A DNA stretch of 64,000 bases. Source: a virus. The notes beneath the pieces were generated by a model. The model was not told the DNA's origin and did not search any database. It saw only the letters and a program-made list of their open reading frames with translations. The stretch covers positions 32,001 through 96,000 of IMG/VR virus record IMGVR_UViG_3300045988_160259; one strand, 5' to 3'. A program made the translations under genes and the position numbers. How positions within the stretch are numbered: position 1 is the first letter of the stretch; each line of letters starts with the position of its first letter. Shown in pieces: positions 3,177 through 32,374 of the stretch.

Positions 3177-3204
3177 ATGTATGTCTCCTTTTATAAAAAA
3201 ATAA

Positions 3205-3287
3205 TACCGGCAGCGAGACTCGAACTCGCACTGCTCATAACAATCTGGGCTTAAACCAGATGTGTCTACCAATTCCACCATACCGGC
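3205..3287 (-). tRNA. tRNA-Leu(UAA): tRNA-Leu (anticodon UAA), long variable arm
   Basis: Manual cloverleaf: acceptor GCCGGTA/TGCCGGT (2 GU), anticodon arm TCTGG-TTTAAGC-CCAGA, T arm GCGAG-TTCGAGT-CTCGC. Confidence 0.85.
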
Positions 3288-3322
3288 ATACGGAGGCACT
3301 GCCTCCATTCGCTAATTATATA

Positions 3323-3412
3323 CGGAGCCTGTAGGATTCGAACCCACGCGCCGCTATTAACGGCCTATCAGTTTTCAGGACTGACCTCTTCAACCAACTT
3401 GAGTAAGACTCC
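3323..3412 (-). tRNA. tRNA-Ser(UGA): tRNA-Ser (anticodon UGA), long variable arm, C at position 33
   Basis: Acceptor GGAGTCT/AGGCTCC, anticodon arm TCAGT-CCTGAAA-ACTGA, T arm GTGGG-TTCGAAT-CCTAC; loop has C instead of the usual U33. Confidence 0.8.
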
Positions 3413-3421
3413 AAACAAAAA

Positions 3422-3505
3422 TGGGCAGAGCAGGAGTCGAACCTGCGGTGTTTCTAATGTAACGGATTTACAGTCCGTCGCTATCGCCACTAAGCACATC
3501 TGCCC
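3422..3505 (-). tRNA. tRNA-Tyr(GUA): tRNA-Tyr (anticodon GUA), long variable arm
   Basis: Acceptor GGGCAGA/TCTGCCC, anticodon arm ACGGA-CTGTAAA-TCCGT, T arm GCAGG-TTCGACT-CCTGC. Confidence 0.85.
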
Positions 3506-3547
3506 ACAAAAATAGGAGAGTAAACCGAAATATTGGATTCACTCTCC
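3506..3547 (-). terminator. rho-independent terminator after DUF262 gene
   Basis: GGAGAGT/ACTCTCC 7-bp hairpin (3515-3547) followed on minus strand by TATTTTTG. Confidence 0.6.
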
Positions 3548-3581: not shown

Positions 3582-4556
3582 TTATAAATTCTCTACAATA
3601 TTATTCCAGTACTGCAGACGAGCTTTAACACCTGCTGACGAAGTAGTTCCAGACTGTACAAGTTGTTTATATTCTTCGTTAACATCATAGTTTTCAATGA
3701 ATTCATCTACGGCAGCACTAAATTTACGGAAGTCTTTGCTGTCTTTTAAGCATTTATATCCACCATAAAGAATCATTGGAATAGAAGTAGATTTTACTTT
3801 AATTGTATCACCCGTATTCAGAGCATCTAATACATCAGTCAATGTACTAATATCAGCAGCGTTAATATTTTCAGCATACCAAATAACAAAACTGTCGATA
3901 TCCTTTGCTCTAAAAGATGTAAAGTCATTTTCTTCATCTGTATTAATCAGCATAAGTGTCTCACGTACCAGGTCACGCTGAACATCTTTCTTATACTGTG
4001 CTGCGCTAAGAACCTTTTCAAAAAATTCATGATCTGCAAGACTGAAAATGACATCACTAACTTTTTCGCTTTCGATAGCGGTACGTTTCTGAGTGTTATT
4101 CAACGGTTTACCATTATTCTGACGAGTAAACATTTCACGAATATCTTCCCCAGTACAATCAGTAAATACGTAGATTGTCATCTCGTAATCATTCAGTTTA
4201 TCTTGTACTGCCTCATCAAGCTGTGCATATTTTTTACCAGCAATTTCATATACCTCGCCATCAACTGTAACTGGTTTTAAATTTTTAGCTAATCTAAAAC
4301 CATCTTTTTTAAAAAAGTCTCTTACTGTGGTAGCTCGCTGAACACCATCAAAAATTCTTCTTACATCATCAGATCCGACCTCACATCTAATTGGATCAAT
4401 CGGATATGGACGAAGCATAGAGTCAATCAGTAAACTTTTCTGACGATTACCCCACTGATTTTCCTGGCGTTGAAACTTGTGTTTCATACTGTATTTTCCT
4501 TTTGCGATATCTTTAGTAAAGTTCTTTGCACTCTGTCTTTTTACTACATAGTCCAT
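3582..4556 (-). CDS. DUF262 (ParB/Srx-fold nuclease-like, GmrSD N-terminal type) domain protein
   Basis: ORF track; FQRQENQWGNRQKSLLIDS ... FDGVQRATT matches the DGQQR signature of DUF262; no DUF1524/HNH half present. Confidence 0.7.
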   Translation of the reverse strand: MDYVVKRQSAKNFTKDIAKGKYSMKHKFQRQENQWGNRQKSLLIDSMLRPYPIDPIRCEVGSDDVRRIFDGVQRATTVRDFFKKDGFRLAKNLKPVTVDGEVYEIAGKKYAQLDEAVQDKLNDYEMTIYVFTDCTGEDIREMFTRQNNGKPLNNTQKRTAIESEKVSDVIFSLADHEFFEKVLSAAQYKKDVQRDLVRETLMLINTDEENDFTSFRAKDIDSFVIWYAENINAADISTLTDVLDALNTGDTIKVKSTSIPMILYGGYKCLKDSKDFRKFSAAVDEFIENYDVNEEYKQLVQSGTTSSAGVKARLQYWNNIVENL

Positions 4557-4765
4557 ACAAAATTACCTCCTGTATTTGATAATTTCACATTATCACAATA
4601 GGAAAATTTTGTAAAGGTACAGCACGTCCTTTTTATAAATATTTTTGCGATTTTTTGTATTTTTTGACGTCGCACATTTTCTCAGGTATGTGCCAATACC
4701 GATTCCTAGACGTCTGTCGGAGATTGCAGTTTGCGTGTTGCTACACGACCACCCATATTTTACTA

Positions 4766-4794
4766 TTGACAGATTTTTCCTCTTGCCATATAAT
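4766..4794 (+). promoter_or_regulatory. consensus sigma-70-type promoter
   Basis: TTGACA (4766-4771), exactly 17-nt spacer, TATAAT (4789-4794). Confidence 0.6.
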
Positions 4795-4799
4795 CTATA

Positions 4800-5200
4800 T
4801 GTGGGAGTTCACCCAGGCGTTTTGTTTACGGCTGGATGAAATGTTAAGGATTTTTCAGAGTCGCACCGGAGCAGTGATGCTTCGTTATATAGATACCCTT
4901 GCTAAGAAAGGAGGGTGATGCGATACGAATCATGTTTGGAATGTAATTAATGATACATATAGACTGATCAATGAGAGTAGCGTACTTTCAAAGACCGTCG
5001 CTGGTATTATTTCCGGACTAACTATTGAGCTTTTTCGAGATTTTAAACAAACAAAAAGAAACCACTAAATAAGTGATTTCTTCTCGTTTTACCAAAATCA
5101 GCCGTTTCCCCTCGGCTCTGAGAAATCCATCTGGATGGACATCCCAATTTTATATTCGATTTATTGAAAGCCACTTGACAATCAAGTGGTTATTTTTATT
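4800..5200 (+). ncRNA. candidate orphan transcript (no credible ORF) between consensus promoter and terminator
   Basis: Bounded by promoter 4766-4794 and terminator 5171-5200; GC-elevated; only 4-10 codon ORFs with canonical starts. Confidence 0.35.
5171..5200 (+). terminator. rho-independent terminator
   Basis: CCACTTG/CAAGTGG hairpin (5171-5189) followed by TTATTTTTATT. Confidence 0.7.
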
Positions 5201-5377
5201 ATTGTAATCGTGATTCAAAATAATTATTTTTATATTAAAGTATAAAACTTGCTTTATTTTCTTATATACTTGTATAATGTAATATACCTTATTTCAAACA
5301 AATTGTCAAGATGGGTATTGACAATTTACAAATTTGTAGTAAAATATCAGAATGTGATTTTGAAAGGTTGTTTCATA

Positions 5378-6448
5378 TTATAAATCAGACAAGGATTTTT
5401 GTTCGACTTTCCTTATACCGTCTTCACAAAAATATTTTTCAAACTCTTCATCAACTTCAATATCCTTATACACACTTACCATGTCAAGAGAAGACCATCC
5501 TATAAGCATCTGAATAACGTTATCCGGTAGACCACTGCGAGAACAAGCAGTCGTAAAGAAATGTCTGAGACTGTGAAAGTAGAAGTCAATTCCTAAAATT
5601 CTACTAAATGTTTCAGCCCAACTATTCAGTGTCTTTGCACTCATTGGTTCATCTATATATTCTCCATTCTTTTTCTTTGGGAATAGCCATTCTGATTCAA
5701 TTCCATGTTCTTTTCTATAATTCATCCATAAATCAAAATATGGTTTAAATGGTTTTGAAAGAACATATGCTGTTAGCATTTTTCCACGACTTCCACGCCC
5801 TTTAGTTTTTATTTTTTCTGGAGTTTTATATAGAGATCCATAAATGATATTTTTGTCATCGAAGTAATTTACCTTAAATCTCGGTAATTCACTTTTTCGA
5901 CGTCCAGAATTCATTGCTAAAGATAACATACAAGCCTTATCAAATTGTTGCTTTTCTACAAGATAATCAAGTAAATTTTGTAATTGTTCTTCCTCTAAGA
6001 CAGTTTTTACCATAACTTTTTCATTTACCGGATTTTCTATTTTTCTAACAATTGGACGATAATTTTCAAATTCATCATCCAACATATTTTCAACATAATT
6101 AGAAAGTGATGAGAGAGTGGATTTTACTCGTCTCATTCTAGCAGGACTCCATTTCCATTCCGTTAAACAGTAACTTTGATATTTTGAAATATCTCTCTTA
6201 GACAATTCTACAAAAAATTTGTTGTTGCAATGCTGTAACAAATATACCCAAAATATTTTTAGGTCATTCTTATACTGATCGATCGTTGATCCTGCTCTGT
6301 CAACCGATCGGAGATAATCAAGAAAATCATTTCCTAAATCTATATTCTCTGGATTAACCTGAGCTAATAATTCATTTGTTACAATACTATTGCGTTGGAC
6401 TTTTCTACCTGCTATTTTTCTCACTTCCTTCCAAAATAAAAGAAGCAA
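5378..6448 (-). CDS. tyrosine recombinase / phage integrase family protein
   Basis: ORF track; C-terminal HSLRHFFTT ... LIGWSSLDMVSVY fits the R-H-R-Y catalytic signature. Confidence 0.85.
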   Translation of the reverse strand: MLLLFWKEVRKIAGRKVQRNSIVTNELLAQVNPENIDLGNDFLDYLRSVDRAGSTIDQYKNDLKIFWVYLLQHCNNKFFVELSKRDISKYQSYCLTEWKWSPARMRRVKSTLSSLSNYVENMLDDEFENYRPIVRKIENPVNEKVMVKTVLEEEQLQNLLDYLVEKQQFDKACMLSLAMNSGRRKSELPRFKVNYFDDKNIIYGSLYKTPEKIKTKGRGSRGKMLTAYVLSKPFKPYFDLWMNYRKEHGIESEWLFPKKKNGEYIDEPMSAKTLNSWAETFSRILGIDFYFHSLRHFFTTACSRSGLPDNVIQMLIGWSSLDMVSVYKDIEVDEEFEKYFCEDGIRKVEQKSLSDL

Positions 6449-10318: not shown

Positions 10319-10996
10319 TTAAATAATTTCATCTAAACTTGTGATAATTTTATCAGCAACACCATATTTAATAGCTTCTTTCGCAGATAAATACCAGTCA
10401 TTTTCAAAGTTTTCATTAAATACATCTTCTGGAATCTTTGTTCTAGATAAAACAAAGTCACCAAGTTCTTCGATTTGTCGTTGATAATTTAAAATTGCTG
10501 CAACTACATCATTGTATGTCCCAGCAAATTGACCAGCTCCCTTATGGATGAGGAATTCTGCCGTTGGAAATGTAAAACGCTCATGACATGCTAAATAAAT
10601 AAAGCATCCACTTGATGCAGCAATACCAACATTAATTCCAATAACTTTTGTTTGGCTTAGTTGAATTGTATCAACCAAACAGTTATTTACTTCTAAATCG
10701 CCACCAGGACTAAAGAAGATTACTTTAATTGGTTTACGTTCTTCTACTGGAATATTATTTTTCTTATCTTCCGAATTCCACTGCATAATCATCTTTGCAT
10801 ATTCCAAAGTCATGGTTGTAATTTCATCATCAATCCAAATAATTCTATCATCGTAATTTTTATAAAATTGTAATAGCGTAGGATCTGGCAACTGTAAATT
10901 TTCTACATTACTTGGAATTGCAATATCTAAATATGTTGCTTCTAATTTTTTCTTGAGTTCCTTTTTCTCCATTGGCAATATGCCTCGTGCTTTCAT
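10319..10996 (-). CDS. clpP: ClpP-family (S14) serine protease
   Basis: ORF track; FSPGGDL, GIAASSGCF (Ser), LIHKGAG (His), SAKEAIKYGVADKI align with ClpP landmarks. Confidence 0.85.
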   Translation of the reverse strand: MKARGILPMEKKELKKKLEATYLDIAIPSNVENLQLPDPTLLQFYKNYDDRIIWIDDEITTMTLEYAKMIMQWNSEDKKNNIPVEERKPIKVIFFSPGGDLEVNNCLVDTIQLSQTKVIGINVGIAASSGCFIYLACHERFTFPTAEFLIHKGAGQFAGTYNDVVAAILNYQRQIEELGDFVLSRTKIPEDVFNENFENDWYLSAKEAIKYGVADKIITSLDEII

Positions 10997-11014: not shown

Positions 11015-12253
11015 TTAATCTAATAAATCTGCCATAGCTGCAGTTTCACTTCGTTCTGTTTTCTGAAGCTGTACATAACCAAATTTTGTATGTCCTGCAA
11101 GTTTTTGTACAGTGGATAGTAAACCATTATTCATTCTAAAAAGAGTAGAATCTGTTTGTTTAAAATCTCCGTTCATCCAAAGAGCAGATCCTTCACCAAC
11201 TCGTCCAATAAGAAGCTGGACATGTTCTTTTGTTAGATTTTCTGCTTCACTAACGTAGATAATCGCATTTTTAATATCTCGTCCTCGAATATAACCGAGA
11301 TGTTCAACTTCAATATTTCCTGCCATAATCTGCATTTCCAGACCATTTTCTCCACCAAGGTGATCTGCTAACGGCATTGCAAAGGGCAAAATCTTCTCAA
11401 ATTTAGTACCAGGTAAGAAACCAACCTCATTTGCATCTTTTACGCCAATTGCATTTCTGACATAAATTAATTTCTCAAATTTTCCTTCTTCGATTAATTT
11501 GATAGCATTTGCAATCATGAGATAGTCTTTTCCACTACCAAATCTACCTGAGATAACTTTGATTGTCTCTTCTTTGTCCTGTAGCATATCAAATGCTAAA
11601 ACCTGTTGTGGGTTTCTTGGTTTGATTTTGCCCATAAAATGACTATTGATTTGTTTATAAGAAATAGGATGATATTCTTGTCCATTCCATTTTCTGTAAT
11701 CAACAACCTCACCATCATTCTTTCGAATTATCAGATATTCATTCAGAAGTGAATCATATTGATTTTCATTTAAATGTAAATAAAAATAACTCATTTCCTC
11801 ATCAGAAAGAGTTACATCTTTGTATCCTGTGTATTCATCAATATTTTTAACAAGATTTATTTCATTTACACCTTTAGTTGGTAGTTTAAAAATATTTTTT
11901 GAAATAAATTTACAATTGAGATCGTCTGTACAAACAATGACAGGAGATACATTTCGATTATATAAAACTGCTGATGCAAGAATAATGTTATCAGGTGTTT
12001 CCTCTAAGTAATATCCTGCAAGAATTTTTTTTACATCTGTGTTAGTTGCGACAACCTCATATTCTCCATAATGCTCATCCAGCATATGAGCCGTTTGTCT
12101 GGCTTTGTATTTAACTTCATTATCTTTATGACCTGAAGTCTTAATACTTTCAATCTCTTCAAGCGTCTTCTGTGAGATAATAAAGGGTTCTTTAAAAGCT
12201 TCCCTTTGCAAATTCAGAAGAGCATTGGTATCTAGGAATAATTTAAATTCCAA
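11015..12253 (-). CDS. phoH: PIN-domain / PhoH-like ATPase
   Basis: ORF track; N-terminal FLDTNALLNL PIN-like, central GRFGSGKDYL Walker A, C-terminal PhoH-like region. Confidence 0.85.
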   Translation of the reverse strand: MEFKLFLDTNALLNLQREAFKEPFIISQKTLEEIESIKTSGHKDNEVKYKARQTAHMLDEHYGEYEVVATNTDVKKILAGYYLEETPDNIILASAVLYNRNVSPVIVCTDDLNCKFISKNIFKLPTKGVNEINLVKNIDEYTGYKDVTLSDEEMSYFYLHLNENQYDSLLNEYLIIRKNDGEVVDYRKWNGQEYHPISYKQINSHFMGKIKPRNPQQVLAFDMLQDKEETIKVISGRFGSGKDYLMIANAIKLIEEGKFEKLIYVRNAIGVKDANEVGFLPGTKFEKILPFAMPLADHLGGENGLEMQIMAGNIEVEHLGYIRGRDIKNAIIYVSEAENLTKEHVQLLIGRVGEGSALWMNGDFKQTDSTLFRMNNGLLSTVQKLAGHTKFGYVQLQKTERSETAAMADLLD

Positions 12254-12286: not shown

Positions 12287-12499
12287 TTAGCGATGATATA
12301 ATTTTTTTCTATAATTTTCGAGAAGTCTCATATTATGAGGAGTCTCACACAAATAGAATTTTTTACGTTTATGACATGATTCCGAATGGGATACGCCACC
12401 TTCCGCATAAGGAACTCCATGCTTTACTAAATATTCTTTCTCTTGTTTAGTAATGAGTACTATATTAATGCACACCTTTCGTTTTAAATTTCTTTGCAT
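12287..12499 (-). CDS. hypothetical small basic protein
   Basis: ORF-track ORF 12287..12577 trimmed to ATG 12499 because its N-terminus translates the tRNA-Ile gene. Confidence 0.5.
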   Translation of the reverse strand: MQRNLKRKVCINIVLITKQEKEYLVKHGVPYAEGGVSHSESCHKRKKFYLCETPHNMRLLENYRKKLYHR

Positions 12500-12518: not shown

Positions 12519-12592
12519 TTGGGGTGGTAGGACTCGAACCCACGACCGTTCGGATATAAGCCGAATGCTCTCGCCAACTGAGCTACACCGCA
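12519..12592 (-). tRNA. tRNA-Ile(UAU): tRNA-Ile (anticodon UAU)
   Basis: D arm GCTC/GAGC, anticodon arm TTCGG-CTTATAT-CCGAA, T arm GTGGG-TTCGAGT-CCTAC; acceptor TGCGGTG/CACCCCA has one C-C mismatch. Confidence 0.75.
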
Positions 12593-13463
12593 ATAATGCT
12601 ACATAAGTAGCAAAATAAGTACGCTGAGATTAAACGTATCTTCGGAAACCTTTACCGACATTATTTTTTCTTCGGTTATCCACTATATGTTGCTTACGCA
12701 CACACATAGTATCTTCCACAACCGCCTTTTGAGAAGAGGCTTATCTTCTTTACTGTATGACTACTCAAGTTTCATCATTCCATTAACACTGCCGTGCTAT
12801 AAATCTCCGCTAAGAGAACTGTGCAGAATCCGCTTAACACATCCAGATATTGCGTATCTTTCAGTGTGTGTATTACCTCCGAAGAGATTACACATTTTGG
12901 CTGCTTACACCATACAGAGGTACAGACTTTCGCTTTATAATTTGTTTGCCTTTTGCATCAAACCAATTTTTATGTTCTTCCTGAATATACTAATTAATAG
13001 AAACGAAATTGAATACAGAAGACGCGCTGCACCAGATGTTTCGTTATCTTTTGGATAACAAAATCCATCACGCCTTCGTAGCTTTCGGTTATAATCCCTA
13101 CTCACATCCTGCATAAGCTAATTTGGCATCTCTACCAATTCACTTACCCAAATGGACATCGCACTTGTCTAATAAGGACTCGCACTATATATCCTTCTAA
13201 TTCCCCATCATATCTTCATAGGTTCGCGTGAGCTATTCTGTTGCGCAGAAAAATGATTCTCAGCGGTTGCCCCTGAATCACCTTGTTGCTCCCTATTTCC
13301 TGACACTATTTCCACACAGGACTTACTCGTTTTACCGGTATGAAACGGCACTTTTTGAGTGCCTGGGATGTTAGTTTTGCATAGATTGACCAATTTTCAT
13401 GGCGACGAGTTGTAAATTCGCCTTTAATACGCTCACACGCATCTATCTGTGCTATGCCACGAG
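12593..13463 (-). ncRNA. candidate large structured non-coding RNA embedded in tRNA cluster (GOLLD/ROOL-class context)
   Basis: About 870 nt without credible ORF, visibly higher GC than flanks, many hairpins including GNRA-capped (12682-12710) and C(UUCG)G (12877-12886) when read on minus strand; flanked by tRNA-Ile and a CAU tRNA-like element. Confidence 0.45.
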
Positions 13464-13536
13464 TTGCGGGACTACGAGTCGAACGTAGCTTTAGAGAATA
13501 TGAATCTCTCGTGGAACCGATCCAGCATATCCCGCG
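13464..13536 (-). tRNA. tRNA-like element, anticodon CAU, initiator-type C1-A72 end, degenerate D arm
   Basis: CGCGGGA ... TCCCGCA-A acceptor, anticodon arm AGAGA-TTCATAT-TCTCT, T arm CTACG-TTCGACT-CGTAG; the D stem forms only 2-3 pairs. Confidence 0.55.
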
Positions 13537-13624
13537 ATAATACTGGCAAACTATTATATCTGCCAGTAAAAAATAAAACATAAAAGAAAGAGGAGATAAT
13601 TATGAAATTAACATAAAGAATTAA

Positions 13625-13657
13625 CCTTTTTAAAAGGGCGGCAGAGAGTAACCGCCC
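13625..13657 (-). terminator. rho-independent terminator
   Basis: GGGCGG/CCGCCC hairpin followed on minus strand by TTTTAAAAAGG. Confidence 0.65.
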
Positions 13658-13663
13658 ATGTAA

Positions 13664-13960
13664 CTAATTAAAATAATTATTTAATTTTCTGTTATAATAT
13701 CTAGTGATTTTTGGTTTTGCCCAAATTTTCGGTTCACATTTGATATTTTCGTAAGTATGGATTTCATGTTCTGGAATATATTCACATTCCAAACTCAACC
13801 CATCTAAAAGTTTTACCACTGTATTTTCAGTGGGAGTAGTAGAAGATAAGTAGGCAAATACACATTTCTCCATTCGCTTAACAACTTTACGAACGATTGC
13901 TACATTAATATCTTCTTTGCTAGCGATTTCTTTGATAATATTTTCTTGTGTAATTGTCAA
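13664..13960 (-). CDS. hypothetical protein, possibly a divergent HU/IHF-fold DNA-binding protein
   Basis: ORF track (TTG start behind GGGAGGA); helix pattern ENIIKEIASKEDINVAIVRKVVKRMEKCVFAYL and a beta-arm-like C-terminus resemble HU topology. Confidence 0.5.
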   Translation of the reverse strand: MTITQENIIKEIASKEDINVAIVRKVVKRMEKCVFAYLSSTTPTENTVVKLLDGLSLECEYIPEHEIHTYENIKCEPKIWAKPKITRYYNRKLNNYFN

Positions 13961-14152: not shown

Positions 14153-16918
14153 TTATCTTTTACGCTTTCTTTCACGGTCTAATTTCTTACGATATTCACG
14201 TTGACAATCATCACATCTTACTGATTTTGACTTAGAATCAACCTCAATCCATTCTCCACAATCCATGCATTGAATAAACTTTGTCGATTTAATTTTGATA
14301 TTATTATTCAAATTATTTACTACATATTGTCCATAACAAAACCAGAAGAGTTGTTTTCCTCTCTTTTCGTTTCCATATAAATATTGAATCAACATATCAG
14401 CAATAACATCTTCTGAATATCCAAAATCTAAAAATTGATTTCGAATAGAACAAGCAACATAATGAAGATTATCAATATATTCATCTTTCATATTTACCAT
14501 ATAACGGTATTCTTTATTGAGCTTATCATATAAATTAGAAACTTCTTTTGAACATACAATATTTACATTGTGCATCATTTTTTGATAATCTAACTTCCCT
14601 AATTTCATTCCTCTTGTGTTTATAGATTTATTAGGGATTTTGTCATATAATTTATTAACAAAACTTTGATTGCGCATACTAACTTGATCAGCTTCTTTAT
14701 CTTTTGCATATTCAAAGAATGCAGGTAACTTCGCGTTCGTAAATTCCTTGATTTCATCATTAATACGATCGGGAAAAGCAGGTTTGTACAAAGTTTTGGC
14801 GTAATCGATCACAAAATTATTCTGACAACATAAGCGTTTTACACAATCAATAGCATGTTGCTTTTCTTCTTCTGACCCATTAATAAATACATCGTTATTC
14901 CAGATCTTTGAAATATTATTACTATAAATTCCAATATTGCCACCGGTAAATGCAGCATTAAGCCCATCATAAATGTTTTGGTTATTCAAAAGTTTTGGCT
15001 CTGCTTTGCGCATATTATAATAAAGAGGAACAATTCCTTCCATATTTTTCTCTGCGATATTCACAAAATTTAGATCTGCAACAACTAAAGATTTATCTCC
15101 ATCCACATCGAACTGTAAAATTTTACTGATCAAATCACGAGTACTGGTATAAACTCCGTTTGTTGTAAACCATTGTCTGATTCTTCGAGATCGTTCCCCA
15201 TATTTCTCATGCGCAACGTTCAAACGAATAGCATGTTCTTTGTAAAGATGTGGGCTGCGGAGACAATCAAGCTTCTCATTTTTGTTAAAAAGCCAACAGA
15301 ATACTTCTTTGTCATTTAGCAACCCTTCTGGGGTATCTATATGTTTAAACCAATATTCACAAGCCGCATAAAAATCCGGTAAAAGGAATGTATATTTCCC
15401 ATGGACTTCAAGTTTCCCGCTGCGATATTTCTTCACAAGACTATTTTTTACTTCACGAATTACATCTTTAGCATAGGTATCATTCAATAATGCAGGATAA
15501 AGTTTTACAGCTTTTTGAAATGGTGTCATATTTGTATTATATGGGGTGATACCTAAAATCTCTTTGACTGTTTTTTCTGAATTGCAAATATTGGTAATTT
15601 TATCAACTGACCTTTTCGTAAGTAAATCAATCTCTTCATCTGTAATATCAGTTAATGTCTGCAACATTTGATAGTTAATTTTTGCATCTTTAATTCTATC
15701 TTCTTCAATATTACACCGACCAGCCTGACAATTATATTTTTTAAAATTATCCTTATACTCATCCCAAGAATCATAAAACTTATACATCTTGAATTGACTT
15801 TTGGTAAAGATAATCCGAATATCATCATCAAAAATATTATACTCTTTGCCGTATATATCTTTGATAGTAGGAGATCCATCATTTACTTCAATAAACTTTC
15901 TGAAATCAAAAACTCCTAATAATCCTTTTACCCATGGCGCACGAAACATAGTATTTTTAGTCATAACTGATGGAAGCATCATACCAGCTCCATCAGTATG
16001 AGGAATCGGTACATCACCAGTTTTTCTTGTAATTGAATAATCCGACTCATCAATAAAATCAAAAGTCCCTGGTACATTCGTTTCAAAATCATCAATTACT
16101 ATACAACGGTCAATATCAAAATCAGTCCACTGGTCAGTTGCAGAATTTGCTAATGCCATATAAGCTAAATGTTTATTTACATTATTACCACCCTTTGAAT
16201 TGATCTTTTCTATTGTAAGGCCACACATAATAGTTTTTTCAACCTTATCCCAAACAGATTCTTTAATAAATACTGCTTTTTTCTTCCTGATTTGCCCAGC
16301 AGAAGAAGTAAAATATCTATATTTTTCACCTTTATATGTAAAACCATAAAAAGAAATATCTTTAAATACATCAAAATAGTAAATTTGAACCACAATTAAA
16401 GCATCCGTCAGTTCATCTTTTTTTATACCGATAGAGCGAGTAAGAGATGATTCAAATACAGAGATAATATTTTGATCTGTTAATTCTTCTTCTCTTAAAC
16501 GTCTTAGCGGGATTTGATTATATGGAATATTTTGTGAAATACAATAACCAATTTTATTAGACAACTTCTCTTTATTAAGAACTTTATTTTTTAGAAGTGT
16601 TAAAAGTTTTTCTTTTGATGCTTTTGCTTTCTTTCGTTTATGTTCTATAATCAAATTTAATCTGACATAATTTTTAACCATATCATTAGTTAGAAGACGA
16701 TAATCTTTTTCTGTATACGCTTTGAATTCTTTAATCTCTTCTAATGTATAACCATTTAAAAGTAGTTCATTTTCTGAATTGGAAAGCATATTATTCACAT
16801 AATTTCGTTCGCTTCTGTATTTACAATTCATTTCATGCAAATATTTTTCATGATTACTGTAAAAATGTCCCGTATCCACAGAATACATATTAATTTGTGT
16901 ATCTAAAATAACTATCAT
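14153..16918 (-). CDS. single-subunit two-barrel RNA polymerase candidate (YonO / cellular RdRP-like)
   Basis: ORF track, 921 aa; CLRSPHLY (like beta-prime RAPTLH) then QFDVDGDK (DxDGD metal site, nt 15095-15109); upstream SSAGQIR, HTDGAGMM, FRAPWVKG, TKSQFKMY resemble RdRP/YonO blocks; C-terminal CxxC...CxxC. Confidence 0.65.
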   Translation of the reverse strand: MIVILDTQINMYSVDTGHFYSNHEKYLHEMNCKYRSERNYVNNMLSNSENELLLNGYTLEEIKEFKAYTEKDYRLLTNDMVKNYVRLNLIIEHKRKKAKASKEKLLTLLKNKVLNKEKLSNKIGYCISQNIPYNQIPLRRLREEELTDQNIISVFESSLTRSIGIKKDELTDALIVVQIYYFDVFKDISFYGFTYKGEKYRYFTSSAGQIRKKKAVFIKESVWDKVEKTIMCGLTIEKINSKGGNNVNKHLAYMALANSATDQWTDFDIDRCIVIDDFETNVPGTFDFIDESDYSITRKTGDVPIPHTDGAGMMLPSVMTKNTMFRAPWVKGLLGVFDFRKFIEVNDGSPTIKDIYGKEYNIFDDDIRIIFTKSQFKMYKFYDSWDEYKDNFKKYNCQAGRCNIEEDRIKDAKINYQMLQTLTDITDEEIDLLTKRSVDKITNICNSEKTVKEILGITPYNTNMTPFQKAVKLYPALLNDTYAKDVIREVKNSLVKKYRSGKLEVHGKYTFLLPDFYAACEYWFKHIDTPEGLLNDKEVFCWLFNKNEKLDCLRSPHLYKEHAIRLNVAHEKYGERSRRIRQWFTTNGVYTSTRDLISKILQFDVDGDKSLVVADLNFVNIAEKNMEGIVPLYYNMRKAEPKLLNNQNIYDGLNAAFTGGNIGIYSNNISKIWNNDVFINGSEEEKQHAIDCVKRLCCQNNFVIDYAKTLYKPAFPDRINDEIKEFTNAKLPAFFEYAKDKEADQVSMRNQSFVNKLYDKIPNKSINTRGMKLGKLDYQKMMHNVNIVCSKEVSNLYDKLNKEYRYMVNMKDEYIDNLHYVACSIRNQFLDFGYSEDVIADMLIQYLYGNEKRGKQLFWFCYGQYVVNNLNNNIKIKSTKFIQCMDCGEWIEVDSKSKSVRCDDCQREYRKKLDRERKRKR

Positions 16919-17165: not shown

Positions 17166-18125
17166 TTACAAAACAAATGTATATCCATGATATTCACAAC
17201 GTTCATGATACAAACACTGAGTAAAAGAAGTTCTGGAGATATGTTCTCCTAAGATCGATTTGCTTTCTCTTTCTAATTTTCTACGATTATCACATGTACC
17301 TATGTATTCTCCGAATTTATATATATTAAACGCTTCATTACAAACTGAATTTCTATGTTTATATGAATAATCCATAGATTTCTGTTTATTAGATATTTCT
17401 TCTTTAAGTAAAAGGTATTTTTGATACTTTCGTTCAAGATAGATTGTTGATCCTTCATACAACCAATCTAAGATTTTTTCTACTATATTATTACCATCAA
17501 TTAATAATGTATAATTATCATGCCCATTATCCCATCTGCTATGAATATCACCTACAAATTTAACTACATTTTTATTTAAATATTCCTTTGTTTTGTTAAT
17601 AAATGCGGAAGTTCCTGTAAAAGTAATTTGAAAATGTATATAATTTTTTCTGAATTTACTTTTTGATTTTCTTACACTTCCAGATATACTTCCATCTCCA
17701 TCCAAATAACCTCTAAGAAAATGATGAATTAAATTATTTGGAACAATTTCTTCGGAAGGAAATATAATTTTAAACGTTTTTCTTGGCGGACAACCCAACT
17801 TGATTAAATCATCTACTATTTGGTCACTTCGAAAAGACAACCTACACATATCTCTGGTAAAATTGTAGTCTCTATTTTGATATTTAAAAAATTCATTCCT
17901 TTCGTAAATATGTCTTTTTATAGGGCATTCATTATTCATTTCTTCTGCTATGGTTTTTAATAAAGCTACATCCTTGTATTTTAAATCTAGTTTTGCCCAC
18001 TTGCTAGATCCACTATTTGAATAAACACATCCATCTGCATATAATAATCCAAGAATATATGCTTTTCTTTCTGTGTCAATTTTATTAAAATAATTATCAT
18101 TTATATTATATTTTCTATTTTTCAA
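17166..18125 (-). CDS. LAGLIDADG homing endonuclease (double-motif)
   Basis: ORF track; YILGLLYADGCV and FLRGYLDGDGSI motifs; C-terminal NUMOD1-like repeat. Confidence 0.85.
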   Translation of the reverse strand: MKNRKYNINDNYFNKIDTERKAYILGLLYADGCVYSNSGSSKWAKLDLKYKDVALLKTIAEEMNNECPIKRHIYERNEFFKYQNRDYNFTRDMCRLSFRSDQIVDDLIKLGCPPRKTFKIIFPSEEIVPNNLIHHFLRGYLDGDGSISGSVRKSKSKFRKNYIHFQITFTGTSAFINKTKEYLNKNVVKFVGDIHSRWDNGHDNYTLLIDGNNIVEKILDWLYEGSTIYLERKYQKYLLLKEEISNKQKSMDYSYKHRNSVCNEAFNIYKFGEYIGTCDNRRKLERESKSILGEHISRTSFTQCLYHERCEYHGYTFVL

Positions 18126-23662: not shown

Positions 23663-24439
23663 TTATTCTTCTTCTCTTGCATTAATTGTATCAAAGGATA
23701 ACCAGAACACATCAGGCTTAGAAATAATCCTTGCATCAATGTATGCCATCTTCATGGAAAGACATGTTCTTGCTTGGTAACACTTTCCATCTATTTCATT
23801 AAGCACCAATGCAACGTCAGGAATATTATTTTTGTTGAAATATAATGGAATCATTAGCTGAATCCTGTTATTGTAGTAATGAGGAATAGCAAGCTTATAA
23901 TTCGCAGTAACCTTTTGAATTGAAGAATCGATTACTCCTTTTAGTGTTTCCAATGCAAGATCACTTGTCCGAATACGTTCTGGTAAACGCTGCGCTGTAT
24001 TAAGGTCATCTAAGATGTGTTCATAATGAACATTAACGGGATAATGCCAGTTGAATATGAGTTTGCCTGGATCAGAAAAGTAATCAGCTCTTTCTGGTAA
24101 ATCAATGATTTTTAAATCGCCTAGCTCATAACGATCTTTGAATCCTTTAAATATCCAACTTGAATAGCCTAATCTATTATTAGGTTCTGCATATACATAA
24201 ATTGGTTCGTTATAATTATCATATAGGCCTGTATTAAAAATACAATAATATTTTGCTGTAACGATTTTCCCTTCACTCTGCAGTTTTTGGAAAGTATGTT
24301 TCATATAATTTTTTAAAATTGAATAATCGTTTATATTTCCAAAAGACCACGGCTCTGACTGTGCTCTTTTTGCTAATTCCGCCATCTGAGCATTGTAATC
24401 TCCCCAATAGAAAAAGCTATATAAATCATTCATGCCCAA
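23663..24439 (-). CDS. DUF3825-like protein
   Basis: ORF track; layout EPWSFGN..ILKNYMKHTFQKL ... NYKLAIPHYYNNRIQLMIPL ... MAYIDARIISKP..WL matches my recollection of DUF3825. Confidence 0.55.
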   Translation of the reverse strand: MGMNDLYSFFYWGDYNAQMAELAKRAQSEPWSFGNINDYSILKNYMKHTFQKLQSEGKIVTAKYYCIFNTGLYDNYNEPIYVYAEPNNRLGYSSWIFKGFKDRYELGDLKIIDLPERADYFSDPGKLIFNWHYPVNVHYEHILDDLNTAQRLPERIRTSDLALETLKGVIDSSIQKVTANYKLAIPHYYNNRIQLMIPLYFNKNNIPDVALVLNEIDGKCYQARTCLSMKMAYIDARIISKPDVFWLSFDTINAREEE

Positions 24440-24733
24440 CAGTCCTTTATATTTTTGATATTAATAATTTTAGCATAATTCGAACAAACATTCAAATGGT
24501 AAATTCTGTATATTATATAGGTATATATGAAATAGAAGATCGTTTTATGCTGGAGTTTAAAAGTAGCCCCATGGTGTGTCTGGTATGAGAGGATACAGAT
24601 CATTTCTTGGGTATGATCGTAGGAGAGTATGTGAGATTATTTGTTTAGAACAAATTTTAATGTGCTTAGTGGATAGTTGTTAGGGTATGGATATAAAATT
24701 GATTTAAAATCTGTAGAAGTATCTTTTTGTATA

Positions 24734-24775
24734 GGGTAGGTGATTTTTATGGTCATCTACCCTTATTTTATTTGA
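24734..24775 (+). terminator. plus-strand terminator-like hairpin convergent with gene 24788..25306
   Basis: GGGTAGGTGA / TCATCTACCC 10-bp stem (1 GU) followed by TTATTTTATTT on plus strand only. Confidence 0.5.
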
Positions 24776-24787
24776 GTTATTTCCTAT

Positions 24788-25306
24788 TTAAAATGTGATG
24801 CTGACACTAAGTTTGATTCTGTACATATAATTGTTTGCCAGTAAAGTTGATCCGAGACAACAGGGAATTGATATTTCGGTGCGTTTTTCTAATTTATTAT
24901 ATCCTACTACAGATATACGAATATCATCTTCTGCAGCAAGTCTTTGTAATTCTTTTAAATATTCATCATATGCAGATTGGTTTGTAATAACATAAGAGAT
25001 TACGCATGATGTTTCTTGTACTTGTCCAGAAAATAATCCTCTTCTATGCATGGTTGTTCTTGTTTCACAGACTCGTCTGACATATTCTGCAGCTTCTGGT
25101 TCGCCCGAATAGGAATCCGGATAATAGCAAGAGATATATTTATGATTGCCTATAGTTGTGTACTCATTATGCTGTGCTTTGGAGCGTAAAAGATCTTTTA
25201 CACCAGAATAATCAAGTCTGGCATTTGTTTGTGCTTCAGATGTTGCTTTGACCTGGATCTGCTTCTGTGTTGGGGTAAGGCTGGACAATTCATCACGAAA
25301 TGACAT
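24788..25306 (-). CDS. hypothetical protein
   Basis: ORF track; first gene of the minus-strand arm. Confidence 0.7.
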   Translation of the reverse strand: MSFRDELSSLTPTQKQIQVKATSEAQTNARLDYSGVKDLLRSKAQHNEYTTIGNHKYISCYYPDSYSGEPEAAEYVRRVCETRTTMHRRGLFSGQVQETSCVISYVITNQSAYDEYLKELQRLAAEDDIRISVVGYNKLEKRTEISIPCCLGSTLLANNYMYRIKLSVSITF

Positions 25307-25319
25307 GATTTTCCTCTTT

Positions 25320-25740
25320 TCTTGTATTGGTGGACAGTTTATAGGGTATAGGTGTTTGAATGGATTCTAGGTCGATTATAATACTGTTTTGTCTTTAGAT
25401 CAATAGTAAGGATGATTTGTGATGATATGATATGGTTTAGATAGGTGAGTGTTGAAATAGTGAAGGAGAGAGGAAGAGTGCAATTTTTAATCCGTAAAAT
25501 GTTTATCGTTTGAGGCCAGAATTTATATGGGGTATTTTTGATTGAGGGTAAAAAAGTGGAGAGTAAAATTTGAAGGGCAGAGTGATTTTAAGGCTTGATT
25601 ACTGAGGTTTACGATAAGGGGTACGATATGGGGTTTTGGTGCGTGGAAGGGGAATTTTGGGCTTGGTTATTGGGGAAAGTGAGAATGAATTTTGGGATGG
25701 AAGATTTTGGAGTTGGTGTGTGGATGAACCGACTGTACAC
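25320..25740. other. C-depleted, G-tract-rich divergent intergenic region (candidate origin or regulatory hub)
   Basis: C is very rare on plus strand, with runs of about 65 nt lacking it; GGGG tracts at 25618, 25630, 25649, 25672; AATTTTGGG at 25653 and 25688 plus variants. Confidence 0.5.
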
Positions 25741-25912: not shown

Positions 25913-25944
25913 AATCCCGACATAGGGAAGAAAGGTTGGTAATT

Positions 25945-26466
25945 ATGATTAAATTTGAAAACAACAACAGTATCGTAGCAGATAACAGCATCGTTTTAAA
26001 CGGTGTTCGTGAGTATAAACTCACAGATGATGAGACGATGAAACTGATGTCTATCATTGACGGTATGATCTCTCAGAGATCTACCACAGGAGTATCTACT
26101 CCATCCACTCAGCTCTCACGGTCTGATGGAAAAGTTGGCGGTATCACTCGTGCCAGCAAAACGCCTTACGAGGCGAAAAAGGCTTTCAAGCCTCAGTACG
26201 AGGTGAAGAAACTTGCAGACGCTGACGGTAAGTCTCTGTTCTGCATCAGCCGTAAAAACGGCTGGACGAGAGCTGAAAAAGCGTTGACGAACGCTGCTAT
26301 CAAAGCTCTCCCGGAGATTATTACAATCTCCGTGCCGTATGAGAAAGACGGCAAGACCAGGACTTTCTCAGCCTGGGGTTATAAGACCAAAAAACGGGCT
26401 GAGGAGATGCTGGAGCAGCTCCCGACTGAGTTTTCAGCAGACGAGCTGAACAACTGGGGTAAGTAA
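25945..26466 (+). CDS. hypothetical protein (GC-richer than genome average)
   Basis: ORF track frame; ATG 25945; its stop codon lies in the loop of a GNRA-capped hairpin (26456-26473) and no terminator follows. Confidence 0.7.
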   Translation: MIKFENNNSIVADNSIVLNGVREYKLTDDETMKLMSIIDGMISQRSTTGVSTPSTQLSRSDGKVGGITRASKTPYEAKKAFKPQYEVKKLADADGKSLFCISRKNGWTRAEKALTNAAIKALPEIITISVPYEKDGKTRTFSAWGYKTKKRAEEMLEQLPTEFSADELNNWGK

Positions 26467-26473
26467 TTACCCC

Positions 26474-27688
26474 AGCTCGACTAGGCGAGGTTAAACAGCT
26501 GTTAAGCCTAGTGCGTCCCGGTAGTAATACCGGGGGTCAGATACGCTATAGTATCTATATATTATATACGTAACATGTTCTTTGCTACGTTCTGTCTTTC
26601 CAGCGTTATAGCTGGTTTCGACATATGAAATATTCCAAAAAAATTAAATAAATCCCTGATACCCCGTAGAGGAAAGTTAGGCGTTTCTCGAACGGTTTAC
26701 GTCATGGGACGGCATCAAAAGACGCAATTTAAGGCGTCCTGTTTATGCTAGACATACGTCAGATAAACCGACTGACGCAGTTATAAACAGGAAAACTGCC
26801 AATAAAGGAGGTGTGCGTGATGCAAGAACATGAGTAAATCTAGGTTTTGCGGACAAGTCTTTTATTAGGACAAGGAAGCATGTCATACGTTGGATATAGG
26901 CTTTCAGGGGGGACAAACTGGTGGGAGCCAGTCTAGGTGGAGAGGTCAATCAAACTATCTCGGCATAGAATAGTTCGGATAAACCGAAGATGAAGACCGA
27001 AGAAAGTGGTGGTCTTAAGGTCGGCGTATGTATAGGCTAATACAGCTATACGTTCTCATCCTAGTACAAAAATGGCAAGTGATTGACACAACTTGTCATC
27101 ATAAAAGCGTCTCAAGAGACGGTATTCTCAGTCATGATTTAGAGAAATCGTTTCCAGGATAAAGCGTTCTAACGCCAACGAGGTATAGAACGTGGTTGAC
27201 GCGTTTTCAGTATGGCTGAAAGTAATAAAAACTGATGCCCGCTACTGGTAAACAACGAGATCACGGACTAGAAAATAGTGGTATTGACCGTAGAAGCTTG
27301 GATGAAAAATGTGACTTGGATATTTGTCTTGAGAGACGCAGGTAGCACACAAGAGCCGGTGGTGACACCGATACGAAGTGTTTCGTGTGTAGCGTTGATT
27401 GCATCTGTCTGCAATCGTGTGTGAGGTCTGAGCGGTACAATCCCCGACAGTAAATCCTAACTCTAAAGTTCTTTTAAGAACATTGACGGACGTTCTAAAG
27501 TTGATCGAACGTATTGTAATTTAATACGAGTCATCAACAAAACCGTGATTCTCATAATCGGTTTGTGTAAAGAGGTTGAGACAAGTGGAGAACATGCGGC
27601 TGTATCTAGTTTGAGTGACATAAATAGCAGCGTGGCATGGCAGGTACACCGAATAAAGTAGAAAGGTCGGTGTGAGTAAACCCTCCAC
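26474..27688 (+). ncRNA. candidate large structured non-coding RNA / structured 3-prime UTR ending at a hammerhead
   Basis: About 1.2 kb without credible ORF, GC-elevated. Helices include 26517-26534 (GUAA loop), 26738-26791 (9-bp closing stem over nested 6-bp hairpin), 27357-27370 (GUGA loop), 27373-27386, 27397-27416, and long-range 27584-27590 with 27683-27689. Confidence 0.5.
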
Positions 27689-27742
27689 TCCTGTACATAT
27701 GGTATAAGTCCATGTGCTGATGAGACATGAGTCGAAACAGGA
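27689..27742 (+). ncRNA. hammerhead ribozyme, type III topology
   Basis: TCCTGTA / CATATGG-TATAAGT-CCATGTG-CTGATGA-GAC-ATGA-GTC-GAAA-CAGGA: complete CUGAUGA and GAAA cores, UA cleavage dinucleotide, stems I (7 bp), II (3 bp), III (6 bp, open). Confidence 0.85.
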
Positions 27743-31972: not shown

Positions 31973-32374
31973 ATGGAAAAACGACATAATCCAGCTGGCT
32001 TTGATTATGAAATCATTGCCCAAAAGAAAGAGTACGCACTCATCAAAATGGAAAGTACAGAAGAGTACAAGATCGTATCCGACATCTGTGCTGATGGAAG
32101 CTGGGCTTACACTGTCTGCTCATGGATGTATGGAAAATATGGTAGAGAAGAATATCTTATTTTACAGGATGCTCTTGATGCATTTCGGTATAAAACGGAA
32201 AGTGATTACATCCCACGGTCACGGCTGGAAGAGTTAGCAACTCAATGGAAAGACAAAATCATTCAGGATTGCTGGATGACAGAAGAAGAACAGAACGAAT
32301 ACTTCATCGGTGAACAAGATATGGATGATGCAGAATTAGAATTTTTCGGATTATTAAAAGGAGATGATGAATAA
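31973..32374 (+). CDS. hypothetical protein
   Basis: ORF track frame; start moved to ATG 31973 behind GAGAGGAAA. Confidence 0.7.
   Translation: MEKRHNPAGFDYEIIAQKKEYALIKMESTEEYKIVSDICADGSWAYTVCSWMYGKYGREEYLILQDALDAFRYKTESDYIPRSRLEELATQWKDKIIQDCWMTEEEQNEYFIGEQDMDDAELEFFGLLKGDDE

Follow-up and report, generated by a model that had tools for sequence, protein, structure and literature searches.

A full-length GOLLD family RNA gene between a degenerate tRNA-Met-like element and tRNA-Ile(UAU) in a human-gut phage contig

We analyzed a 64,000-nucleotide (nt) stretch of viral DNA (positions 32,001 to 96,000 of IMG/VR record IMGVR_UViG_3300045988_160259; hereafter the window), in which an earlier sequence-only reading had placed a large structured noncoding RNA of the GOLLD or ROOL kind on the minus strand of positions 12593-13463. 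Our results indicate, with a probability that we put at about 0.9, that minus-strand positions 13462-12621 are a bona fide GOLLD RNA gene of about 840 nt in a large human-gut phage that probably infects Firmicutes. The locus is an added member of the known GOLLD family and not a new RNA class. GOLLD RNA is said to have been originally described by Weinberg et al. in 2009. Members of the family form RNA-only cages of 12 to 14 copies built from a 5' cap and a 3' ring with the linker inside, are found near phage transfer RNA (tRNA) islands, and increase in expression during lysis (PMC12286853, PMC12990946). Their biological role is not established, and encapsulation of tRNAs or of ribosome-related cargo during lysis has been proposed (PMC12286853).

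In an Rfam 15 scan of the whole window, the GOLLD model RF02032 matched positions 12621-13078 of the minus strand with 196 bits (gathering score, 150; E value, 9.4e-54). The match ran from end to end of the model (positions 1-416 of 416) and was not truncated, confirming that a large structured RNA of the proposed kind lies on this strand. The alignment holds the signature elements of the family, including the long CAAAA-loop hairpin that opens the model, an A/U-rich linker, AAAGCGAAAGUCU, and the long-range bracketed helix. Further signatures present are GAGUAG, GUGGAUAA...AUAAU (GUGGAUA...AUAAU), and UAAUCUCAGC at the 3' terminus, and the signature sequences were invariant or nearly so across 10 to 12 aligned sequences. 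GOLLD and ROOL share a phage and tRNA context (PMC12286853). Of these two labels, which the sequence-only reading had left side by side, GOLLD held at a score above the gathering threshold and ROOL fell away, with no match to the ROOL model in the whole window either at its gathering score or at an E value of ≤0.1. No other large-RNA family in Rfam was matched in the window, even at an E value of ≤0.1. All of the defining GOLLD features that can be tested in sequence were found, and the test for ROOL membership was negative.

Since RF02032 covers the conserved 3' domain alone, we used relatives to set the remaining extent of the gene. A blastn search of GenBank phages returned one relative, MT835469, an unannotated 176-kilobase (kb) phage scaffold from human faeces, with 68% identity over 12623-13460, that is, over the whole interval and beyond the part covered by Rfam. 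Pattern scans of IMG/VR together with nhmmer yielded 61 full-length homologues on uncultivated phage contigs of 80 to 216 kb, which formed 10 clusters at 96% identity, five of them near the window (89 to 100% identity) and five at 67 to 70%. Because homology to diverged phage clades, at least six in number and mostly at 67 to 70% identity, runs from 13460 to 12623 and is bounded there, we set the length of the RNA at about 840 nt. The gene, its parts, and the tRNA elements that flank it are as follows, all on the minus strand.

12621..13462: full-length GOLLD gene, about 840 nt, with the 5' end near 13462-13460 and the 3' end near 12623-12621
13081..13462: 5' domain, RNA nt 1-382, comprising helices 1 and 3-20 and lying outside the Rfam model
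12621..13078: 3' domain, the RF02032 match
13014..13080: first hairpin of the 3' domain (helices 21 and 22), with the CAAAA loop; this hairpin opens the Rfam model
12934..13013: variable AT-rich linker between the domains, the counterpart of J13/15, 80 nt, unstructured
12753..12917: helix 24, the long-range helix that closes the core of the 3' domain and the bracketed [[[ ]]] helix of RF02032
12518..12592: tRNA-Ile(UAU), called by ARAGORN and by the Rfam tRNA model (62.5 bits), starting about 28 nt past the 3' end of GOLLD
13465..13535: degenerate tRNA-Met-like element with anticodon CAU, 71 nt, found by ARAGORN at a lowered threshold (-ps)

A genome scan with the 17-mer GGGGCNACCGCTGAGAA was too unspecific to be kept, with 120 loci and one true match, the locus L177. 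A longer degenerate pattern recovered L177 and Oceanobacillus profundus DSM 18246, a cultivated Bacillaceae genome that carries a GOLLD RNA at 4673-5476 of L297 (NZ_QWEH01000007.1). MT835469 (172.6 bits), L177 (175.1 bits), and O. profundus (205.9 bits) all score above the RF02032 threshold. The 5' domain found in the window is conserved in six phage clades and in L177. It is conserved in part in O. profundus, whose 5' domain is partly homologous and lacks the subdomain that matches helices 12-14. The O. profundus GOLLD has tRNA-Asn and tRNA-Pro upstream, probably belongs to a prophage, and is a possible experimentally tractable relative. L177 comes from an Elusimicrobiales bin, which we did not take as evidence of the host because the contig is a 5.6-kb piece of a metagenome-assembled genome full of tRNAs.

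Statistical support for a conserved fold is provided by covariation and by the Rfam covariance model; the hairpins by themselves do not supply it. In an alignment of 10 representative sequences (A2), the RNAalifold consensus contained 213 pairs in 33 helices, and 98.6% of the paired cells in the alignment held a base pair, compared to 35 to 47% when pairing partners were slid by one to three columns. Compensatory changes were seen at 87 of the 213 pairs, compared to 4 to 16 for slid partners, and none of 500 column shuffles reached the observed values of pairing or compensation. Covariation is therefore strong over the whole RNA of about 840 nt. The 5' domain is as well supported as the 3' domain, because compensated pairs made up 45 of 104 in the former and 42 of 105 in the latter. 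Helix 24 alone showed compensatory changes at eight of its nine pairs, and within-clade differences in this helix in L068 and L046 kept the pairing. In contrast to these paired regions, the linker (80 nt with a G+C content of 0.24 in the window; 80 to 110 nt and 0.15 to 0.26 in relatives) had no conserved columns and no predicted pairs in A2.

The consensus helices accommodate each of the hairpins that had been picked out by eye on this strand. The hairpin capped by GUAA at 12682-12710 is helix 32 (window positions 12711-12681), the C(UUCG)G hairpin at 12877-12886 is the tip of helix 25, GTTATC/GATAAC at 13043-13059 is helix 22 of the CAAAA-loop hairpin, TTCTG-CGCAA-CAGAA at 13236-13250 is helix 14, and GGCAC/GTGCC at 13347-13363 is helix 7. 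The direct repeats noted at 12781-12840 are present but are merely strands of the adjacent helices 27-29. Among the loops, CAAAAG was invariant in 12 of 12 aligned sequences, and the hairpin that carries it (13014-13080) probably corresponds to the published P13/P14 hairpin. At 12828-12779 of the minus strand, two neighboring hairpins have invariant GC-containing loops, UUAGCGG and GGCA, and probably correspond to P21a and P21b.

We considered whether the locus might be a nonfunctional GOLLD relic that is decaying like the neighboring tRNA-Met-like element. The state of that neighbor would fit such decay, since the CAU tRNA falls below the detection threshold throughout the window clade, and in the L062 clade some members have a mutated anticodon in the corresponding element. 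The RNA gene behaves otherwise: the predicted pairs are almost all intact, compensatory changes separate clades that are only 67 to 70% identical, the loop motifs are invariant in 12 sequences, and even the differences within clades, as in helix 24 of L068 and L046, preserve pairing. Intact pairs, compensation, and invariant loops are the signature of purifying selection on structure, and we regard decay of the RNA as very unlikely.

Slightly less probable still is that the interval encodes a different large ornate RNA, either ROOL or an undescribed class, that resembles GOLLD only locally. ROOL has the same phage and tRNA context (PMC12286853), and the 5' 380 nt of our RNA lie outside the Rfam model and have no sequence similarity to the 5' domain of env-38, a GOLLD RNA of solved structure. 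Against this reading, the match spans all 416 positions of the GOLLD model above the curated cutoff, and the core helices of GOLLD are seen in the Rfam alignment of the 3' domain. In addition, ROOL is unmatched at an E value of ≤0.1, a variable 5' domain is a published trait of GOLLD RNAs (PMC12286853, PMC12990946), and our RNA and env-38 have in common a GUAGGGAU motif that directly precedes the hairpin opening the 3' domain.

The two remaining alternatives have next to no support from our analyses. That the interval is a decayed tRNA island, made up of tRNA genes or pseudogenes instead of one large RNA, might be suggested by the tRNA or tRNA-like genes on both sides, by the degenerate state of the upstream CAU element itself, and by related contigs with as many as 10 or 11 tRNAs nearby. 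However, ARAGORN called nothing over 12560-13480 even at an 85% threshold, which excludes further tRNAs hidden inside the interval at that setting, the Rfam tRNA model had no match in the interval at an E value of ≤1, and the whole stretch fits GOLLD and its covarying fold. The interval was likewise described as free of credible open reading frames (ORFs) and as richer in G+C than its surroundings, and both descriptions were borne out: the G+C content is 0.40 to 0.43 compared to about 0.30 in the flanks, and 12593-13463 contains no credible ORF, the listed frames overlapping one another on both strands. These frames are as follows.

12687-13058, plus strand: ORF of 123 amino acids
Minus strand, within the interval: ORFs of 59, 61, and 91 amino acids

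That any of these ORFs of 59 to 123 amino acids is a real small phage gene is effectively refuted by their mutual overlap on both strands, by a frameshift and five to eight stop codons in the 123-amino-acid frame in nine of nine relatives (one of them 94% identical), by two to six stop codons in the 59- and 61-amino-acid frames in diverged clades, and by substitutions that are governed by base pairing and not by codon structure. The ORF calls in 12687-13581 should be dropped from the annotation.

Among characterized GOLLD RNAs, we compared the window RNA most closely with env-38 (PDB 9MEE), an 833-nt RNA from a marine source that forms a 14-mer cage in which the linker is disordered inside, and whose gene lies downstream of a Met-tRNA (PMC12286853). 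The two RNAs have the same 3' domain architecture, a similar length (about 840 nt in the window), and two domains joined by a variable internal linker, and both conserve the CAAAA loop and the 3'-terminal UAAUCUCAGC motif. They also share a phage and tRNA-island context with tRNA-Met immediately upstream, although this tRNA is degenerate in the window, and they differ in that the window derives from a human-gut phage and env-38 is marine. With the A2 profile, nhmmer aligned only the last 60 nt or so of env-38, using an imperfect text copy of that RNA (816 nt compared to the published 833 nt). Because the alignment is limited to this part, the 5' domain of our RNA cannot be mapped onto P1-P13.

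The GOLLD RNA of Streptococcus agalactiae (PDB 9L0R) is 700 nt and forms a 12-mer, and its 3' domain alone forms a 10-mer (PDB 9LMF; PMC12990946). By its published description, it resembles the window RNA in its Firmicute setting, its conserved 3' domain, and a 5' domain that would cap the assembly. It differs in that the window RNA is about 140 nt longer and keeps both of the hairpins that are probably P21a and P21b, whereas the S. agalactiae RNA is described as being without P21b. Mycobacterial GOLLD RNAs in tRNA arrays carry a tRNA-Phe inside the J13/15 linker, according to Morgado et al. 2020 as cited in PMC12990946 and PMC12286853. Those RNAs are like ours in being embedded among tRNA genes on the same strand and unlike ours in that the 80-nt linker in the window contains no tRNA and the tRNAs flank GOLLD instead. 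Finally, ROOL (env-120; PDB 9MDS, an 8-mer cage) is also a large ornate RNA of phages and prophages that lies near tRNAs and forms RNA-only cages, but it has another fold and sequence and, as reported above, is unmatched in the window.

Both tRNA flanks had been predicted from the letters alone, and they fared differently. The tRNA-Ile(UAU) was confirmed by both ARAGORN and Rfam. The CAU element exists but is below threshold: it went uncalled by default ARAGORN and by the Rfam tRNA model at an E value of ≤1, and the call as tRNA-Met(cat) comes only from ARAGORN at a lowered threshold. Its acceptor, anticodon, and T arms are intact, but the D-arm is defective, with a D-stem of three base pairs, and A8 replaces U8. 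A gap of 4 nt separates its 3' end from the first GOLLD helix, and the same subthreshold element is present in all relatives of the window clade.

Comparison with sister clades indicates what this element corresponds to. In L070, L161, L002, L061, L038, and L177, GOLLD is preceded directly, and on its own strand, by a standard tRNA-Met(CAU). The distance is about 53 nt in L070, L161, L002, L061, and MT835469, within about 10 nt in the L038 subclade, and 2 nt in L177. The CAU element of the window is the positional counterpart of this sister-clade tRNA-Met, and it has the acceptor sequence GCGGGAU in common with the tRNA-Met of L070. In most of the L062 clade (e.g., L062 300-448, L063, and L058), a tRNA-Met-like element is uncalled by any detector. 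It has a good T-arm and anticodon arm, and the CAU anticodon is mutated in two members; a standard tRNA-Met occupies this position within the L062 clade only in the L038 subclade. On the other side of the gene, a tRNA follows 12 to 47 nt downstream of GOLLD in most clades, and its identity differs between them (Ile in the window; Ala, Arg, Lys, or Gly in sister clades). In a set of 21 GOLLD candidates from IMG/VR that are more distant, six have an adjoining tRNA-Met, either upstream or downstream, and one has other tRNAs just downstream. In all, a CAU tRNA accompanies GOLLD on the upstream side in seven clades and env-38, and on the downstream side in several distant GOLLDs.

One reading of these observations is that the upstream tRNA-Met, with its D-arm destroyed and its acceptor, T, and anticodon arms kept, lost its decoding function and was retained as a processing handle, which could either define where GOLLD begins or remain attached to the cage. 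The recurrent pairing with a CAU tRNA might reflect a functional link and not mere colocation, and the lineage-specific 5' cap might give a stoichiometry other than that of a 12- or 14-mer. Taken jointly, we consider this set of proposals to be doubtful, with perhaps one chance in several of being correct as a whole. More speculatively, if the CAU tRNA were a lysidine-type tRNA-Ile2, it might have become dispensable since the window clade alone carries tRNA-Ile(UAU).

The GOLLD gene is on the same strand as, and within 4 to 30 nt of, the tRNA-Met-like element upstream and tRNA-Ile(UAU) downstream. This arrangement suggests a model in which the tRNA-like element, GOLLD, and tRNA-Ile would be transcribed as one precursor. 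The 5' end of GOLLD would arise by ribonuclease (RNase) Z-type 3' processing of the tRNA-like element, and its 3' side would be trimmed when RNase P cuts at tRNA-Ile. By homology to the env-38 and S. agalactiae structures, the released RNA is predicted to fold into two domains, a 5' cap and a 3' ring, and to self-assemble, free of protein, into a closed homo-oligomeric cage of perhaps 12 to 14 copies, with the variable linker facing the cage interior. Candidates for the intermolecular contacts are the CAAAA, UUAGCGG, and GGCA loops. In solved GOLLD cages, the A-rich L14 loop makes an intermolecular minor-groove contact (PMC12990946), and by analogy our three loops may plausibly correspond to the A-minor and self-kissing bridges that have been published. 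The most likely reading of its role is that the RNA is a scaffold or compartment of the lytic cycle, tied to the supply of phage tRNAs and to translation.

We found no evidence that contradicts the identification of the gene as GOLLD, but several points weigh against this broader account of its structure and expression. Apart from the GUAGGGAU junction motif, the A2 profile detected no nhmmer similarity between the 5' domain of the window RNA and that of env-38, and for this reason neither oligomer number nor cap contacts can be confidently transferred from env-38. Two of the RNAalifold helices, helix 2 (nt 15-18 with 833-836) and helix 23, had no covariation and conflicted with Rfam and the published structure, and we rejected them. 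The fold of the single sequence was weakly better than that of shuffled sequences (z = -2.16), which is not decisive, and the candidate kissing loops are invariant, so that covariation cannot probe loop contacts. Lastly, the one sign of cotranscription with the tRNAs is a weak -10-like motif.

The genes around the GOLLD unit are phage genes, as had been supposed. From about 25 kb down to 1 kb, every gene in the window runs on the minus strand, and the features nearest to the unit are as follows, listed from upstream to downstream.

17166-18125, minus strand: free-standing ORF resembling LAGLIDADG homing endonucleases, between the RNA polymerase gene and small ORFs
14153-16918, minus strand: protein of 921 amino acids matching Pfam RdRP PF05183 and phrog_8308
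13664-13960: small ORF of 98 amino acids upstream of the GOLLD unit
13637..13658, minus strand: terminator-like GC-rich hairpin after the 98-amino-acid ORF (GGGCGG, a 10-nt loop, and CCGCCC, then UUUU), read from the sequence, with its function inferred
13553..13558, minus strand: TATAAT, a hexamer resembling a -10 box, 17 nt before the tRNA-like element
12287-12478, minus strand: possible basic ORF of 63 amino acids containing Cys and His (MQRNLKRKVC...), starting about 30 nt past tRNA-Ile
11015-12253, minus strand: fusion of a PIN domain and a PhoH-like ATPase (PhoH2-type RNA helicase/RNase architecture), directly following tRNA-Ile and GOLLD on their strand
10319-10996: ClpP-like protease, after the PIN-PhoH gene

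The hairpin at 13637-13658 was outside the range of our automated hairpin scan, which had a loop limit of 8 nt. The TATAAT hexamer has no good -35 hexamer and is altered in the relative L009; it might tentatively be put forward as a promoter for the tRNA-like/GOLLD/tRNA-Ile unit. The 63-amino-acid ORF had no match in Pfam or PHROG, and a longer version of 96 amino acids was rejected, its 5' end being spurious and running into the tRNA gene. The DNA of the 921-amino-acid gene is similar to that of SPbeta-type Bacillus phages, Clostridium phage D-1873, and Psychrobacillus phage Perkons, in which the product is named "RNA-dependent RNA polymerase." Given the PF05183 match and this similarity to genes of SPbeta-type phages, the protein is by sequence a predicted YonO-like single-subunit two-barrel RNA polymerase. 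Further phage genes in the neighborhood encode an exonuclease (downstream), a UvrD-type helicase, and a sliding clamp. The PIN-PhoH, ClpP-like, UvrD-type, sliding-clamp, and YonO-like genes together bear out the phage setting, with relatives in SPbeta-type Bacillus phages and a Clostridium phage. Because relatives of the neighboring genes are found in these phages, the host is most likely a Firmicute.

Other structured or ORF-poor regions were seen elsewhere in the window. A Pistol ribozyme (RF02679) lies at 26475-26541 of the plus strand, with 69.5 bits compared to a gathering score of 34.5, and starts 9 nt past the stop codon of an ORF of 176 amino acids (25936-26466). The ribozyme opens a stretch of about 1.25 kb (26475-27713, plus strand) with no credible ORF and a G+C content of 0.41 to 0.44, compared to about 0.31 elsewhere, and the 959 nt that follow the ribozyme fold far better than shuffled sequences (z = -5.1). 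This stretch had no other Rfam match, its only relative among GenBank phages was a 69-nt match over the ribozyme, and a search for related loci with the 176-amino-acid protein found no relatives. The region 26475-27713 may be a candidate undescribed large RNA and is perhaps the first ORF-free structured region to which the sequence-only reading alluded in calling the GOLLD interval its second. A gap of about 820 nt at 4556-5378, between genes at 3582-4556 and 5378-6448, holds only ORFs of 87 amino acids or fewer; it lies near a tRNA-Leu/Ser/Tyr cluster (3204-3506) and had no Rfam match. At about 24000-25600, where the cumulative GC skew reaches its minimum, the genes switch from the minus to the plus strand; transcription diverges from this point, and the region may hold a replication origin.

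GOLLD belongs to a small set of natural RNAs that are known to form cages free of protein, and the locus described here leaves that picture unchanged. What it adds is modestly new: a covarying 5' domain with no detectable sequence similarity to that of env-38, a degenerate tRNA-Met-like neighbor, and a broad set of relatives in gut phages. The locus is a well-delimited, full-length example with about 60 human-gut phage relatives in at least six diverged clades, and these relatives can serve directly for covariation analysis of the 5' cap domain, which lies outside the Rfam model and is unlike that of env-38 in sequence. The conserved order of tRNA(CAU), GOLLD, and tRNA suggests that tRNA processing sets the ends of the RNA. 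Finally, the clades form a natural series, from a normal tRNA-Met through an element with a defective D-arm to one with a mutated anticodon, which could test whether the tRNA that accompanies GOLLD is cargo, a processing signal, or a bystander.

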